Origin: Nanobdellota archaeon
GTDB lineage: Archaea > Nanobdellota > Nanobdellia > Pacearchaeales > GW2011-AR1
Direction of reading: 5' to 3'
Assembly (NCBI GenBank): GCA_038045165.1
Contig: JBBSYR010000057.1
Coordinates: forward strand, 1 to 37,062
Length of the DNA: 37,062 nt
Under the pieces are notes generated by a model that was given only the letters and a program-made list of their open reading frames with translations, ran no database searches and had not been told where the DNA came from. The position numbers and the translations under genes are program-made. This document shows positions 16,493 to 37,062 of the stretch, in pieces (the stretch's first letter is position 1; every line of letters begins with the position of its first letter).

Positions 16493-17767
16493 ATGGACGC
16501 TAAAAATTTTCTTTCAAAGCTTGAATTTCGGCCTTCTGAAGAAGAATCTAAAATTCTAAGAAAAAAAGCCAATATTTTTGCAGGACTTTTAAAAAAAGAA
16601 TTGAAAAGGAAAAAGATTTTTGCAGAAGTATTTATCGGGGGTAGCATGGCTAAAGGCACGCTTGTTAAAAAAAAGGTAAATGACATTGATTTATTTGTGA
16701 GATTTGACAAAAAACATGAAAATCCTTCTTCTCTGTTGGAGGGTGTTTTGCCGGAATTTTGCAAGAAAAATAAATATAAACTAACTAAAATTCATGGAAG
16801 CAGAGATTATTTTATGCTGCAAAATGAAGAAGGGTTTATTTTTGAAGTTGTTCCAGTACTTAAAATAAAAAATCCGAGAGAGGCGGAAAATGTGACTGAC
16901 TTAAGCTATTTTCATGTTAGATATGCAAAAAAGAAAATGAATAAAGAACTGGCAAGGCAGATTGCCATAATGAAAGCTTTTTGCAAGGCGCAGGATGTTT
17001 ATGGCGCTGAAAGCTATATTGGAGGATTTTCAGGTTATGGCCTCGAATGCCTGATTATTTACTATAAATCATTTGAAAAAATGGCAAAAGCACTCATTAA
17101 TATAAAGTCTAAATTGATTTTAGATCCCGAGAAGAAATATAAAAATAAGAATGATATTTTTCTTGAGATAAATGAAAGTAAAATGCAAAGCCCAATCGTT
17201 CTTATTGACCCTACCTGGAAAGAAAGGAATGTTTTAGCTGCTTTGAGCAATGAGAGTTTTCAGAAATTTCAGAAAGTGCTGAAGGAATTCCTGAAAAAGC
17301 CGAGCTTTGAATTTTTTAAAGATAAAAATGCTGCTGATAAAAAAGCATTGGCTGAATTTGCCAAAAAGAGCAAAGCAGAATTTGTTGAACTAACGCTGTG
17401 GACTGACAGGCAAGGTGGAGATATTGCAGGCACAAAGCTAAAAAGGTTTTATGATTTCCTCGCGGAAGAGCTCGAAAGTGATTTTTCTGTTCTGAAAAAA
17501 GAATTTTATTACTTTGAGAATAAGATGGCTGAAGTTTATTTTGTCTTGGCATCTAAGAAAGAAAAGACCAAAGTGGGGCCATTTACAAATTTGAAGAAAC
17601 ATTGCGAAGCTTTCAGAAAAATGCATAAAGAGATATTTGAAAAAGATGGAAGATTGTATGCCTCTGAAAAAATTAATAAAAGTGCAAAGAAATTTATTAA
17701 GGATTATGCTAAAGGAAATAAGAAAAAGATAAGCGAGATGGGAATAACCGAAGTCGTTATTAGATAA
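16493..17767 (+). CDS. cca: archaeal class I CCA-adding enzyme (tRNA nucleotidyltransferase)
   Basis: 424 aa. Pol-beta NTase motif GGSMAKGTLVKKKVNDIDLFV. Length and downstream layout are typical of archaeal CCA enzymes. Confidence 0.7.
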   Translation: MDAKNFLSKLEFRPSEEESKILRKKANIFAGLLKKELKRKKIFAEVFIGGSMAKGTLVKKKVNDIDLFVRFDKKHENPSSLLEGVLPEFCKKNKYKLTKIHGSRDYFMLQNEEGFIFEVVPVLKIKNPREAENVTDLSYFHVRYAKKKMNKELARQIAIMKAFCKAQDVYGAESYIGGFSGYGLECLIIYYKSFEKMAKALINIKSKLILDPEKKYKNKNDIFLEINESKMQSPIVLIDPTWKERNVLAALSNESFQKFQKVLKEFLKKPSFEFFKDKNAADKKALAEFAKKSKAEFVELTLWTDRQGGDIAGTKLKRFYDFLAEELESDFSVLKKEFYYFENKMAEVYFVLASKKEKTKVGPFTNLKKHCEAFRKMHKEIFEKDGRLYASEKINKSAKKFIKDYAKGNKKKISEMGITEVVIR

Positions 17768-17802: not shown

Positions 17803-17899
17803 TTACAGAAAACTGCGTAGCTTGTAGCACATTTTGTACGCAGTTTTCTGTCTGGAGAACTGCAACGCAGAGAGCTACAAGTAATGCAGTTATCCATAT
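17803..17899 (+). repeat. 97-nt structured repeat element, copy A
   Basis: Reverse complement of 24344..24435 apart from a 5-nt indel and 1 mismatch. Contains a perfect 15-bp hairpin (17805..17819 with 17837..17851). Confidence 0.9.
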
Positions 17900-24343: not shown

Positions 24344-24435
24344 ATATGGCTAACTGCATTACTTGTAGCTCTCTGCGTTGCAGTTCTCCAGACAGAACGT
24401 ACAAAATGTGCTACAAGCTACGCAGTTTTCTGTAA
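24344..24435 (-). repeat. 92-nt structured repeat element, copy B (inverted relative to copy A)
   Basis: Its reverse complement aligns to 17803..17899 with one 5-nt deletion and one mismatch. Confidence 0.9.
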
Positions 24436-27811: not shown

Positions 27812-28546
27812 ATGGAAAAACAATACGTTCAAAAAAAAGCAAAAGCATCACAATTGAGCAAAGCAATTGAAAATAAGGATATTAAGAAATCTCCAGATAA
27901 GTCTCCTGCCTCTCTCGCTGGTAATTCCACTTCCGCTTCTTCATCCCCTTCTCAATCTTCTCCTGCTCCCCAATCTGCCACTCCAGCATCTTCCTCTCAA
28001 CCTTCATCTTCTCAAACATCCCCTTCAGCTCCAACAGAAAAAACAGAAGAAAAAGAAAAAAAGCCAAAAGAAGCAGTTAAAGTTAAAAAAGAGGAAGCTA
28101 TTGCAAAAGGCCTCAATCTTCATGCTTCAAAAAAGCACTGCATGTATATCTGTTCATTTATTAAAAACAAATCCATTGACTGGGCAATTTTGGAATTGCA
28201 GAAAGTTATTCAGCTAAAAAGACCTATTCCATTTAAGGGCGAAATTCCCCACAGAAGTTATCCAGGAATGATGTCTGGCAGATATCCTGTAAGCGCATCA
28301 AAGCAATTTATTAATATTTTAAAAGCACTAAAAGGCAATGTAATTGCCAATGGCATGGAATTAGAAAAAACCCGCATTTATTTTGGCTCAGCAAATTGGG
28401 CTTCCCGCCCTCAGAAACGCGGCGGAGCAAGGTTCAAAAGAACCCATGTCTTGTTAAAGGCAAAAGAATTTAATAGTGAAAATAAAGCACAAATGAAAAC
28501 CCAAAAATCAGAAAAAACTGAAATAAAGTCGGAGGCGGAGAAATAA
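27812..28546 (+). CDS. rpl22: 50S ribosomal protein uL22 with a long S/P-rich N-terminal extension
   Basis: uL22 core (LHASKKHCMYICSFIKNKSIDWAILELQKVI...RYPVSASKQF...) preceded by about 95 aa of K-rich then S/P-rich sequence. Start at the TAA-A-ATG junction. Confidence 0.85.
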   Translation: MEKQYVQKKAKASQLSKAIENKDIKKSPDKSPASLAGNSTSASSSPSQSSPAPQSATPASSSQPSSSQTSPSAPTEKTEEKEKKPKEAVKVKKEEAIAKGLNLHASKKHCMYICSFIKNKSIDWAILELQKVIQLKRPIPFKGEIPHRSYPGMMSGRYPVSASKQFINILKALKGNVIANGMELEKTRIYFGSANWASRPQKRGGARFKRTHVLLKAKEFNSENKAQMKTQKSEKTEIKSEAEK

Positions 28547-29443: not shown

Positions 29444-29743
29444 ATGGACACAGATCCACGACTAGGATTGCCAACTGAAACAGGAGTATTTGAAGAGATT
29501 GCAAAAGGCGAACAGAAAATAAATGTTTCAACTGTATCGCGTAGATACGGCAAAATAACAACCCTTGTAAGCGGATTTGACAAAAACTTCGATATCAAAG
29601 GCACTGCAAAGCACCTTAAAGAGCAGCTCGCCTGCGGCGGCACCATCAAGGATGGTGTCATAGAACTTCAAGGAAATCACAAGAAGCAAGTAAAGCCAAT
29701 ACTCATGAAACTTGGTTTTCCAGAAGAATCAATTTCAGATTAA
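29444..29743 (+). CDS. sui1: translation initiation factor aSUI1 (eIF1 homologue)
   Basis: GKITTLVSGFD...LKEQLACGGTIKDGVIELQGNH. Canonical position after uL29. Confidence 0.88.
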   Translation: MDTDPRLGLPTETGVFEEIAKGEQKINVSTVSRRYGKITTLVSGFDKNFDIKGTAKHLKEQLACGGTIKDGVIELQGNHKKQVKPILMKLGFPEESISD

Positions 29744-29747
29744 TAAA

Positions 29748-30107
29748 ATGGAAAAGAAAAAAACAAAAACAGAAGACAATAAGCAAAAAGAAATAGCAGC
29801 GCCAAGCGCGCCAGATAAATTAATTGCAAATAGAGGCAGAACTTTTAAAGGAGTTGTAGTAAAAAAGTTTCCTACTCGGGTAGTTGTTGAATTCGGGCGA
29901 GTTGTTTTTGTTCCAAAATATGATCGTTTCTACAAGAAAAAAACAAGGATTCATGCGAGGCTTCCCCAAGGAATAGAAGTTAATGTCAATGATTATGTAA
30001 AAGTTGCAGAATGCCGTCCTTTAAGCAAAATTATTCATCATGTGGTCATAGAAAAAATACTTTCTATAGAAGAAGCACATTCAGAAAATTCAGAGGAGAA
30101 AAAATAA
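29748..30107 (+). CDS. rps17: 30S ribosomal protein uS17
   Basis: GRTFKGVVVKK...VPKYDRFYKKKTRIHA...GDYVKVAECRPLSK-like pattern, plus synteny. Confidence 0.9.
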   Translation: MEKKKTKTEDNKQKEIAAPSAPDKLIANRGRTFKGVVVKKFPTRVVVEFGRVVFVPKYDRFYKKKTRIHARLPQGIEVNVNDYVKVAECRPLSKIIHHVVIEKILSIEEAHSENSEEKK

Positions 30108-30108
30108 A

Positions 30109-30447
30109 ATGATAAACCCAGAGCAATTAGAAAGAAATCCAGAAGTTATATTAATAATAAAAGGAGAACGAATAAACGCGAGATACATAAGCCTGACAGC
30201 AAGGCGAGATTTAGGAATAAGAACCGCAGAAGATAATGCAGTTTTTGCTCAAGAAGACACAGAAAGAGAGTATATACAAACGTTGAGCATGCCGTATTCT
30301 GATTTAATTGAAGAAGGCAATTTAGTAAGATTAATTGATGATAAAATTTCTGGCACGTTATATTGGCAAACAGGCAGTTTATCTGGCAAGAGAGAAACAT
30401 TCAGAAAACTTCACAAATTTTTACATTCTCAGGAGGTCGCACAATGA
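30109..30447 (+). CDS. ORFan A (112 aa) inserted in the ribosomal operon
   Basis: The full-length ORF fills the gap exactly. TAA-A-ATG junction with uS17. No recognisable motif. Net acidic, with Arg more frequent than Lys. Confidence 0.6.
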   Translation: MINPEQLERNPEVILIIKGERINARYISLTARRDLGIRTAEDNAVFAQEDTEREYIQTLSMPYSDLIEEGNLVRLIDDKISGTLYWQTGSLSGKRETFRKLHKFLHSQEVAQ

Positions 30448-30791
30448 TAGCCTTTGAAGACATAGAAAAAAAGTATTTGCAGGCAAGAGAATGTATGGCT
30501 GATATTATTCAGGCAGTGTCAACTGATAATTATCCTCCTCATGCTACGTGGATTCATCCTCCAGCAATGGCAAGATGGCTCTACCTTTCAAGCTGTGAAT
30601 TTTTAAAAGATTATACTAAAATATCTGGTATGTTTAGGTCAGAAAATGTTGAACAAAGTGCAAAAATAGATTTATGGCGAGACGAATTAGACCAAAAAGT
30701 TAATCATATATGGAATATAGGACCTGATAGATTTATACAAGAAGCAGTAAAAAGGACACTATCTCCTTCTATTAGGGAGCTCTGTGCATAA
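30444..30791 (+). CDS. ORFan B (115 aa) inserted in the ribosomal operon
   Basis: AGGAGG at 30431..30436. ATGA overlap with ORFan A and TAATG overlap with uL14. Probably helical. No recognisable motif. Confidence 0.6.
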   Translation: MIAFEDIEKKYLQARECMADIIQAVSTDNYPPHATWIHPPAMARWLYLSSCEFLKDYTKISGMFRSENVEQSAKIDLWRDELDQKVNHIWNIGPDRFIQEAVKRTLSPSIRELCA

Positions 30792-31192
30792 TGAAAGCAA
30801 TTAATGCATCGGTCACGCGAGGTTTAAACATCGGCAGTCAAGTTGTTGCTGCAGACAACAGCGGAGCAAGAATAGTTAGAATAACCGGAGTCAAGCACGG
30901 AAAAACCAAAAAAGGAAGACAGCAATATGCAAAAGTCGCTGATTGGGTTAAAGTTTCAGTTCGAGCAGGAAAACCAGATATGAAAGGTCAGGTATTTGAT
31001 GCAGTAGTCATAAGGCAAAAAAAGCCGTATATGCGCCTGACAGGTGAGCGTGTCTGTTTCGAAGATAATGCAGTTGCTCTGCTTAAAGATGAAAAAGGAA
31101 ATCCAAAAGGCACAATGATTAAGGGGCCAGTCGCAAAAGAAATTCATGAAAGGTGGGCGCAAGTTGCAAAAATCGCGCAATATGTTTTATGA
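30791..31192 (+). CDS. rpl14: 50S ribosomal protein uL14
   Basis: VADNSGAR...VIRQKKP..R..G....FEDNA. Confidence 0.95.
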   Translation: MKAINASVTRGLNIGSQVVAADNSGARIVRITGVKHGKTKKGRQQYAKVADWVKVSVRAGKPDMKGQVFDAVVIRQKKPYMRLTGERVCFEDNAVALLKDEKGNPKGTMIKGPVAKEIHERWAQVAKIAQYVL

Positions 31193-35139: not shown

Positions 35140-35451
35140 ATGGAAACACTAAAAAATATTTTCGAGTTACGCGCACAATGGAATGAAGGAGATAGATTCA
35201 GAGTTGATGGTATAGCATACTCCTTTCACGGAGGAGTTGATAAAGGCGTATTAGCTATATCTAAACAAAATGATGATTGTTATGTTGAGGTTATTATTCA
35301 AGAGCCAAAGGGAACAGATATAAATAATTTAACTGGAAGAATAACATCTCCACAACTTATTAGAAGACATGTTGCTCAACATGATATGGCAAGTTTTGAT
35401 TTCTATGATGGGATATGGAATGCTTCTTCAAGAGAGGAGGTCACAGCATAA
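35140..35451 (+). CDS. ORFan C (103 aa) inserted between uL18 and uS5
   Basis: The ORF fills the gap exactly, with TAA-A-ATG junctions on both sides. Its last codons carry the GGAGG that serves uS5. No recognisable motif. Confidence 0.6.
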   Translation: METLKNIFELRAQWNEGDRFRVDGIAYSFHGGVDKGVLAISKQNDDCYVEVIIQEPKGTDINNLTGRITSPQLIRRHVAQHDMASFDFYDGIWNASSREEVTA

Positions 35452-36685: not shown

Positions 36686-37062
36686 ATGGAATGGAAAGAA
36701 TTCGATAGGGGAGTTTTTTTAGTGAATGTGCTTGGAATAGTTTTTGACACAAGTAAAAAGAAGATTCTTATAGGTAAAAGAGAAAACGATAGGCACATCA
36801 AAGAGTTAACATGGTGTTTCCCAGGAGGTAGGCCAGAATACGGCGAAGAATTGGAAGATTCCCTAAAAAGTGAAATAAAAAAGAAAACTGGACTTAAAGT
36901 CGAAAGTCTAGGAGCAGTATTTGCAAAAGCATATCCGGAGAAAAAAGAATTTCTTTCAATATATTATTTATGTGAAGTTATAGGTGGAAAAGAAAAAGCA
37001 GGTGAAAAATTTTCTGAACTAAAATGGGTTTCTATAGATGAGCTGCAAAAATATTTTACAAC
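36686..37062 (+). CDS. Nudix-fold protein with a degenerate Nudix box (partial, runs off the window)
   Basis: My own translation from ATG 36686: MEWKEFDRGVFLVNVLGIVFD...FPGGRPEYGEELEDSLKSEIKKKTGL. It fits Gx5Ex7-(R>S)E-U-x-(EE>KK)-x-G-U. Coupled to uL30 by TAA-G-ATG. Confidence 0.65.
   Translation, partial: MEWKEFDRGVFLVNVLGIVFDTSKKKILIGKRENDRHIKELTWCFPGGRPEYGEELEDSLKSEIKKKTGLKVESLGAVFAKAYPEKKEFLSIYYLCEVIGGKEKAGEKFSELKWVSIDELQKYFT

Follow-up and report, generated by a model that had tools for sequence, protein, structure and literature searches.

Results

ORFs A and B at the uS17/uL14 junction

The window analyzed here is a 37,062-nt stretch of DNA from a Nanobdellota archaeon (contig JBBSYR010000057.1), in which two small open reading frames (ORFs), named A and B, lie between the ribosomal protein genes uS17 and uL14. 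We compared the window (W) with related contigs and loci, which carry L numbers; the window together with L001 to L004 is called the window clade. The genes and junctions are listed below, with the motifs as read from the sequence (SD, Shine-Dalgarno; pI, isoelectric point).

29748..30107, + strand: uS17 gene (Pfam Ribosomal_S17, 1.5e-15)
30093..30098, + strand: SD-like GAGGAG, 11 to 16 nt 5' of the ORF A start codon
30105..30111, + strand: uS17 stop TAA (30105-30107), A at 30108, and ORF A ATG (30109-30111), a junction of the AATAAAATG type
30109..30447, + strand: ORF A, 112 aa, pI 5.4
30431..30436, + strand: AGGAGG, SD-like motif for ORF B, within ORF A
30444..30447, + strand: overlap of A and B as ATGA
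30444..30791, + strand: ORF B, 115 aa, pI 5.6
30789..30793, + strand: B stop TAA overlapping the uL14 ATG, as TAATG
30791..31192, + strand: uL14 gene, which anchors the slot on its downstream side (Pfam Ribosomal_L14, 1e-31)

A first-pass annotation of this DNA had described A and B as two coupled ORFans, and every coordinate that it gave for the stop and start codons, AGGAGG, ATGA, and TAATG holds in the sequence. Its description of both products as non-basic, with Arg at least as frequent as Lys, was borne out as well: A has 5 Lys and 10 Arg (pI 5.41) and B has 7 of each (pI 5.57), unlike the ribosomal proteins of the operon, whose pI values range from 9.6 to 11.5. The Arg codons, given there as mostly AGA, are mostly AGA or AGG, and the composition of A and B is native (GC content, 0.351; GC content at third codon positions, 0.22 to 0.26, within the range of the host genes).

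A and B are genuine coding frames. Frame +1 was the sole open frame in 5 of 5 A and 10 of 10 B homologues, with 1 to 17 stops in the other five frames, and when we simulated random substitution with the 115 differences that separate A from its 47%-identical homologue, the probability that A stayed open was 0.003. Neither Rfam nor tRNA scans found anything in the window; together with the single open frame, this led us to reject noncoding explanations of the A/B region.

The setting of the two ORFs is that of a tightly packed operon. The nonconserved C-terminal tail of uS17 contains the SD-like GAGGAG of ORF A, and among relatives this tail, past the conserved IIHHxVIEK end, covaries with the cassette. 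The AATAAAATG junction is also found 5' of uL22, uS3, uS17, eS4, and a third ORFan described below. Across the span from uL3 to uL30, the gap lies between -32 and +4 nt at 23 of 24 junctions, with recurring AATAAAATG and ATGA motifs. Tight packing is thus the style of the whole operon and is not special to A and B.

Searches of Pfam, NCBIfam, PADLOC, and PHROGs returned no match for A or B, and no toxin-antitoxin, defense, or phage model was matched in PADLOC, PHROGs, or Pfam; all 21 neighboring ribosomal proteins, in contrast, are recognized. When all 31 B members were compared with Pfam, PADLOC, and PHROGs, only scattered noise was obtained, including one B member against phrog_9508 (HNH) with an E value of 0.34, which lies within that noise. 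A sequence search of the PDB gave no ribosomal-protein match for A or B, and the N-terminal module of B alone found nothing among the PDB sequence profiles. The AlphaFold2 (AF2) model of A, built on a 4-sequence alignment, predicts a beta-rich body and a C-terminal helix (predicted local distance difference test [pLDDT] score, 75; predicted template modeling [pTM] score, 0.71), and that of B predicts a helical bundle (pLDDT, 67; pTM, 0.59). Foldseek searches of both models against PDB, and of the A model also against BFVD, gave best E values of 0.06 and 1.4. A had template modeling scores of at most 0.33 and no fold match, and the B model matched only generic helical bundles in the PDB. The view that neither protein contains a recognizable motif therefore stands at the level of family and fold matches.

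Several candidate identities were considered and rejected. The resemblance of B to NDUFB4 (Pfam PF07225; PDB profile match 6g2j_m, E value of 0.13) consists of DPALIRWTxARS aligned to HPTLARWLYGSS, and 10 of the 31 B members show it below threshold (best E value, 0.011); being below the gathering threshold, about 12 residues long, and to a membrane subunit from another taxonomic domain, it was judged a chance resemblance. Among the PDB sequence profiles, A matched the C terminus of SipD over 47 residues (E value of 0.006), a region that is helical in SipD and predicted to be beta in A. An origin of A and B by duplication was rejected because no second copy of any part of either was found in the window (blastn, tblastx). 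A diversity-generating retroelement target was rejected because there is no repeat copy in the window and the variable positions are not adenine specific, although not every window ORF was scanned for a reverse transcriptase. A mobile-element origin was rejected as well, since neither ORF has relatives in the IMG/VR viral contigs, the GenBank phages, or the PLSDB plasmids. Full-text literature searches found no description of such operon inserts, and the ribosome-linked novel families mentioned in the FESNov paper are others than A and B.

B is a family found in the ribosomal-protein operon

An exhaustive phmmer search of 1.84 billion representatives, with A and B concatenated as the query, yielded 29 further B relatives (26 to 48% identity, 102 to 126 aa). 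A word-index search returned close relatives only, from Hainich groundwater and other metagenomes, and a word-index profile search with the B alignment returned only 7 proteins, none of them a domain fusion. In an NCBI contig of a metagenome-assembled genome, B carries the annotation of a hypothetical protein. The B of the window aligns over its full length with 30 relatives, in which W45 is invariant and F4, Y11, W36, T41, and E52 are nearly so, and it fits the signature of the family, W-I-x-x-P-T-[LM]-[AV]-R-W-[LF]-Y-x-S-S-x-E-F plus an N-terminal F-x-D-[VI]-E-x-x-Y. The protein has two parts:

30444..30629, + strand: conserved N-terminal module of B, codons 1 to 62 (motif PPHATWIHPPAMARWLYLSSCEF at 30534..30602)
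30630..30788, + strand: variable C-terminal half of B, with indels and an unalignable tail

These alignments place B in a previously undescribed family, about 30 clusters in size, which is predicted to be helical and was, in this survey, found only in Woesearchaeota-type DPANN. The label of ORFan is thus only partly right, as it does not suit a protein with about 30 cluster-level relatives.

We then looked at where B resides, using a 10-sequence subset of the B alignment to scan genomes for B loci. All B contexts with readable flanks were in a ribosomal-protein operon, almost always between uS17 and uL14, where B stands alone in at least 12 lineages. The loci with B alone are L006 to L019, L022, and L024 to L027, which include three GTDB genomes labeled Woesearchaeota or Nanoarchaeota. 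In all of these B-only loci, uS17 and B, and likewise B and uL14, share the 4 nt of an ATGA, and there is an SD-like motif upstream; for B, this is GGAGG or AGGAG inside uS17. The B/uL14 junction is TAATG in the window and ATGA in the relatives except L004, whose B has a different tail that overlaps uL14 by 14 nt. Elsewhere in the operons, a hidden Markov model (HMM) of B found only a B-family gene between uL3 and uL4 (L020) and a pair of B paralogues in tandem in the uS17/uL14 slot (L021).

The order uS17-A-B-uL14 holds without exception in the window and L001 to L004, and no A-less or B-less genome was found within the window's own species-level clade. In the nearest outgroup (L005, SUI1 95% identical), the order is uS17, an A-like gene, and uL14, without B. 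The slot therefore exists in four states: B, B+B, A+B, and A. These results indicate that A and B are independent protein-coding cassettes and that B is a clade-wide resident of the slot.

B alleles are exchanged independently of the neighboring genes

Next, we compared the divergence of B with that of the genes around it. Loci L009 and L012 are 90 to 100% identical in nearly every 100-nt window across about 8 kb of the operon. In the B gene and the uS17 tail, their nucleotide identity is 27 to 57%, the two B proteins are 40% identical, and the proportion of synonymous sites that differ (pS) is 0.72 in B and 0.21 in uL14 (P value = 1e-9). The other exceptions in this pair are the start of a small uL14/uL24 ORF and local dips at uL23/uL2 and uS14-uS8, which are short indel patches. 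A 126-aa ORF (381 nt) between uS19 and uL22 (L009 3250..3630) is precisely absent in L012, the operon being otherwise about 95% identical; the 11-nt direct repeat TAAAATGACGG on either side of it is none other than the stop/start junction.

L012 and L026 show the converse pattern: their flanks are about 75% identical and saturated (pS, 0.69 to 0.86), yet in B codons 1 to 56 pS is 0.11 (P value = 4e-8), with at most 4 mismatches in 145 nt. The pairwise identities of B and of uL14 gave a Spearman coefficient of -0.01 and a Pearson coefficient of 0.56, the latter driven by near-identical pairs. The replacement between L009 and L012, the transfer between L012 and L026, and the lack of a rank correlation between B and uL14 together indicate that whole B alleles or modules move between lineages independently of the surrounding ribosomal genes. 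All the data are metagenomic assemblies, in which chimeric joins could mimic recombination, but the same patterns were seen with independent samples and assemblers.

The two halves of B also differ in how they evolve. Between the window and L004, uL14 is identical at 132 of 133 positions (99%; nonsynonymous divergence [dN], 0.003; ratio of nonsynonymous to synonymous divergence [dN/dS, or omega], 0.012), versus 74% identity for B and 81% for A, and dN is 10 to 60 times faster in A and B than in the neighboring genes. Within B, omega was 0.17 to 0.22 for codons 1 to 62 (P value = 0.01 to 0.03) about 0.7 for codons 63 to 100, and about 0.7 to 0.9 for the C-terminal half; few substitutions underlie these and the other selection statistics. 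The C-terminal tail is not conserved. These values indicate that the N-terminal 62 residues of B are under purifying selection.

A is barely constrained or diversifying and is kept open

A has a much narrower distribution. Its relatives are those of the window clade (81 to 97% identity) and P0007 (47%), the sole further match of the exhaustive phmmer search. Three segments of the ORF were distinguished by their variation:

30134..30194, + strand: single nucleotide polymorphism (SNP) hot spot of ORF A, with R9K, I16V, and L29P, all nonsynonymous
30187..30348, + strand: variable middle of ORF A, codons 27 to 80 (synonymous divergence [dS], 0.35 to 0.42; omega, 0.6 to 1.4)
30349..30447, + strand: 3' block of ORF A, codons 81 to 112, holding the SD motif and restart context for ORF B

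Omega for A as a whole was 0.6 to 1.4 and was never significantly different from 1, even against the 47%-identical homologue. Of the two signs of a nonfunctional A that the first-pass annotation had named for close relatives, one, a dN/dS near 1, is present, and the other, a frame-disrupting variant, was not seen; the one-codon indel in the variable middle of the L004 A is in frame. The changes are unevenly spread along the ORF. No synonymous change was found at 36 sites in codons 1 to 26 and 81 to 112, versus 9 to 11 at 33 sites in codons 27 to 80 (Fisher test, P value = 7e-4 and 1e-4), and codons 81 to 112 show 3 nonsynonymous changes (in L004) and no synonymous one among four clade genomes. 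The lack of synonymous change at both ends implies a nucleotide-level constraint there.

The window and L001 differ by 4 mismatches in 16,735 aligned nt, and 3 of these are in A (30134, 30154, and 30194); against L002, the same three positions are the only mismatches in 7,839 nt. Codon 29 of A encodes L, P, or Q, i.e., three states among four genomes. The SNP cluster exceeds the neutral expectation, unless one short recombination tract delivered all three changes. Blocks AVFxQE, PYSDL, and NLVRL are conserved between homologues that are only 47% identical. Taken together, these results indicate that A is a young cassette, barely constrained or diversifying, whose frame is kept open.

Other variable ORFs and the surroundings of the slot

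Small ORFs of this kind are found at other junctions. In the window, there is one more:

35140..35451, + strand: third acidic ORFan, 103 aa, pI 5.0, between uL18 and uS5, with a TAA-A-ATG junction and no Pfam match

L001 has it, and L009 and L010 lack it at the uL18/uS5 junction. It is an analogous cassette without sequence relationship to A or B. Related operons hold small ORFs at uL23/uL2, uL2/uS19, uS19/uL22, uL22/uS3, uL14/uL24, uL5/uS14, uS14/uS8, eL32/eL19, and uS5/uL30, and such lineage-variable ORFs occur in L006, L008 to L012, L014, L019, L024, and L026, with about 13 in L008. A Pfam scan of ten of them recognized only a 209-aa DnaQ/RNase_T-like exonuclease (L008 11550..12179, at eL32/eL19). 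ORFs of 76 to 81 aa at uL14/uL24 (L009 6755..7000, L012 4719..4949, and L019 717..962) look like winged helix-turn-helix (wHTH) proteins on reading of their sequences, with no Pfam match above threshold. Between uL30 and uL15 there is a gene for a NUDIX hydrolase, recognized by Pfam (window 36686..37062, + strand, cut by the window end; L001 16359..16781).

The B-HMM showed none of the other inserted ORFs to be related to B. A superfamily uniting A with other inserted ORFs through a C-terminal [FWY][RK]x[LF]xx[FIL][LI] helix was not supported: an HMM of A gave hints only (E value of 8e-4 in a 27-sequence database), and comparison by hhalign with the family of the uL2/uS19 slot gave a probability of 0.2%.

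The window is a fragment of an archaeal chromosome, encoding Mre11/Rad50, a CCA-adding enzyme, TrmB, a proteasome subunit, and aCPSF1. Upstream of uS17, the Pfam scan identified the SUI1 gene, and uS17 is the next gene after a gap of 4 nt (29444..29748). The RNase P protein Rpp29 is usually encoded between SUI1 and uS17 in archaea; neither the window nor any related locus examined has it there. Neither profiles nor folds supported the view that A or B is a displaced Rpp29.

Other features of the window and its relatives are noted here in their own right. The uL22 gene (27812..28546, + strand) has a long low-complexity N-terminal extension, Ser/Pro/Ala/Gln rich and then Lys/Glu rich, ahead of the conserved domain, and its relatives are alignable only from residue 46 to 114 or so onward. 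A structured repeat of about 95 nt occurs in two inverted copies (17803..17899, - strand, and 24344..24435, + strand), the second just upstream of uL3 and with a 5-nt deletion. It has a perfect 15-bp stem, the 17.8-kb copy has a folding z score of -5.7 to -6.4, and no Rfam or tRNA match was found; it could be a small RNA gene or an element resembling a miniature inverted-repeat transposable element. The CCA-adding enzyme (16493..17767, + strand; tRNA_NucTransf2, 1.6e-29) also matches the SMODS domain (6.5e-10), probably through the shared nucleotidyltransferase fold. Lastly, uL14 of L016 (490..891) has an in-frame stop at codon 11 in a coverage-1 contig, probably a sequencing or assembly error.

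Discussion

We propose that the uS17/uL14 junction is a cassette slot in a Woesearchaeota-type DPANN clade and that the window holds two independent cassettes, B as the resident and A as a younger insertion; taken as a whole, this explanation appears to us moderately likely. The junction is the seam of the bacterial S10 and spc operons, and the seam of the ancestral operons may be what makes it a favored site. B would be expressed in translational coupling with uL14 and with the gene before it, uS17 or, in the window, ORF A, as suggested by the junction geometry and the SD-like motifs. Its N-terminal aromatic module, some 60 residues long, is under selection, its C-terminal half is free-running, and its alleles and modules are swapped horizontally. 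A would be a later insertion between uS17 and B whose frame and ends are kept and whose sequence is barely constrained or diversifying; its 3' end would carry the SD motif and the restart context needed by B and uL14. Whole-ORF gain, loss, and replacement probably proceed through recombination at the repeated stop/start motif (AATAAAATG or ATGA), a process in which the essential genes downstream would stay coupled. The products may be nonessential accessory proteins made at ribosome-like levels, and their pattern of evolution suggests a strain-variable, possibly antagonistic interaction. Our best guess is that the conserved module of B docks on a conserved partner in the translation apparatus and that the variable half faces a variable partner.

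Several points weigh against this explanation. The argument for translational coupling is one of geometry, and that for microhomology draws on one clean insertion/deletion and on the junction consensus. The presence of B in almost every clade member at the same slot also fits a conserved housekeeping role, and cassette dynamics may be a genome-wide trait of these compact genomes instead of a peculiarity of the ribosomal operon. The SNP cluster in A may be one short recombination tract and not three selected changes, and the AF2 models, having 4-sequence and 2-sequence alignments as inputs, are of moderate confidence only. Because the explanation is about what the cassettes are and how they behave in evolution and not about their biochemical activity, our estimates for the alternatives below overlap with it.

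The alternative that survives best, which we regard as possible though unlikely, is a lineage-specific role for B, and perhaps for A, as a ribosome-associated protein or a dedicated assembly or escort factor, e.g., an acidic chaperone for the basic uS17 or uL14 that its coupling to them would keep in stoichiometric amounts. A ribosome-associated or biogenesis role had been put forward in the first-pass annotation, and for B part of the case stands: the slot and the double ATGA coupling are kept in at least 12 lineages, the N-terminal module is under purifying selection, and acidic proteins lie beside very basic neighbors. Genes conserved in the archaeal ribosomal superoperon mostly serve translation or protein biogenesis (SUI1, Rpp29, SecY). 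The behavior of B is what speaks against such a role. B is absent in the sister lineage L005, close genomes carry B alleles that are only 40% identical, and modules cross between distant lineages, which is unexpected for a partner of ultraconserved ribosomal proteins; neither conserved presence nor vertical codivergence with the ribosomal proteins was found, given the L005 loss, the lack of rank correlation, and the replacement. B-like genes also occur at uL3/uL4 and in tandem, unrelated genes sit at other junctions, and omega of A is near 1. Because the DnaQ-like exonuclease, the NUDIX hydrolase, and the wHTH-like ORFs share such slots, position alone is weak evidence of function. A core ribosomal protein is an unlikely identity, since A and B are acidic and B has been lost in L005 and exchanged.

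The known residents of the archaeal ribosomal superoperon (SUI1/aIF1, Rpp29, SecY, adenylate kinase, and an EMC3/DUF106-like insertase) resemble A and B in being nonribosomal, codirectional, and tightly packed, and B shares with them a fixed slot. They are, however, ancient, widespread, vertically inherited, and recognizable by profiles, whereas A and B match none of them, are confined to one DPANN clade, and are exchanged or lost. Factors and chaperones that bind uL14 (eukaryotic Bcp1, bacterial RsfS, and archaeal aIF6) offer another comparison, as they are small, non-basic, and act on uL14 or nascent ribosomal proteins, and by analogy an acidic protein cotranslated with uS17 and uL14 would fit a chaperone role. 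No sequence or fold similarity to them was found in A or B, and the hypervariability of B and its loss in L005 would be atypical of such factors.

Somewhat less likely, in our view, is that A and B are conflict genes (immunity, antitoxin-like, antiviral, or antidefense) placed on a constitutive high-expression platform, with a diversity maintained by frequency-dependent selection. This would account for the deeply divergent alleles in near-identical backgrounds, the mosaic exchange, the tandem duplication, and the slot hopping, as well as for the excess of nonsynonymous polymorphism in A, the presence/absence polymorphism of the other cassettes, and the small, acidic, cytoplasmic nature of the products. 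On the other side, PADLOC, PHROGs, Pfam, and PDB/BFVD contained nothing similar, the neighborhood showed no toxin or nuclease partner, the viral, phage, and plasmid collections were without relatives, and B is nearly universal in the clade and not patchy. Hypervariable allelic loci share with the slot their divergent alleles in about 95%-identical backgrounds, mosaicism, intragenic breakpoints, and tandem duplicates, but at A and B nothing stands out as a cognate toxin, receptor, or specificity partner; we know of no such locus inside a ribosomal-protein operon.

For A alone, a translated spacer deserves the same limited weight: A would be nonfunctional as a protein, and only an open frame with intact ends would be selected so that ribosomes reach B and uL14 starts. 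An omega near 1 at every level of divergence, 47% identity included, a freely evolving middle between two ends without synonymous change, and an ORF kept open are what a spacer predicts. It does not predict SNPs in excess of the neutral expectation (3 of 4 in 2% of the sequence), the three blocks conserved at 47% identity, a compact AF2 fold with a pTM of 0.71 from only 4 sequences, or a sister lineage that retains A and has lost B.

More doubtful is a broader version in which exchangeable small-protein cassettes populate the stop/start junctions of the ribosomal superoperon in Woesearchaeota-type DPANN. B would then be a strain-variable protein close to the ribosome, with its N-terminal part as an anchor to the translation machinery and its hypervariable half, along with add-ons like A, engaged in an arms race (e.g., protecting ribosomes from toxins or viral factors); or else the cassettes would be mobile junction-homing genes of a new kind, which would duplicate the stop/start motif.

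That the cassettes are selfish mobile genes like free-standing homing endonuclease genes ("intronless homing"), aimed at conserved junctions of the ribosomal operon and spreading by cleavage and repair, is improbable. The insertion exactly between highly conserved genes, the near-identical operons that differ by the presence of a cassette with an 11-nt junction duplication, the divergence of the adjacent uS17 tail that travels with the B allele, and the number of junctions affected all recall such genes, and the free-standing homing genes of T4-like phages (seg, mob) are likewise small, variable, exactly intergenic between conserved genes, and locally divergent in their flanks. However, no nuclease motif or fold was detectable in A or B, whether as a GIY-YIG, HNH, LAGLIDADG, or PD-(D/E)xK signature or in the Foldseek searches of the models. 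The proteins, at only 100 to 120 aa, are half the usual size and are encoded on an archaeal chromosome, B shows allelic replacement instead of presence/absence, and its N-terminal module is under ordinary purifying selection. A and B show the defining sequence features of none of their nearest analogues (superoperon residents, homing genes, and hypervariable loci).

A type II toxin-antitoxin pair, suggested earlier from the layout of two ORFs of about 110 aa with a 4-nt ATGA overlap, can be set aside as highly improbable, because the four states of the slot leave no obligate A/B pair: the two are separate in most lineages (A without B in L005, B alone in at least 12 lineages, B in tandem in L021) and co-occur only in the window clade, the usual neighbors of B are uS17 and uL14, no toxin-antitoxin or defense family was matched, and the pair has neither intergenic space nor a promoter region of its own.

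What is new here is the B protein family and an unusual, well-supported evolutionary behavior in an unexpected place; no new mechanism is demonstrated. The ribosomal-protein cluster is the textbook case of a frozen gene order and the backbone of marker-gene phylogenies and of the binning of uncultured archaea. In one DPANN clade, this cluster has slots where small, fast-evolving genes are inserted, duplicated, swapped, and lost, with coupling apparently unbroken. If this holds, the clade would have a new protein family, B, made together with its ribosomal proteins, and it would offer a natural system for how new genes enter essential operons; it would also serve as a warning that contigs of ribosomal proteins can hold horizontally exchanged segments. 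Strain-variable ribosome accessories would be described for the first time in archaea, should the cassettes prove to act on the ribosome.

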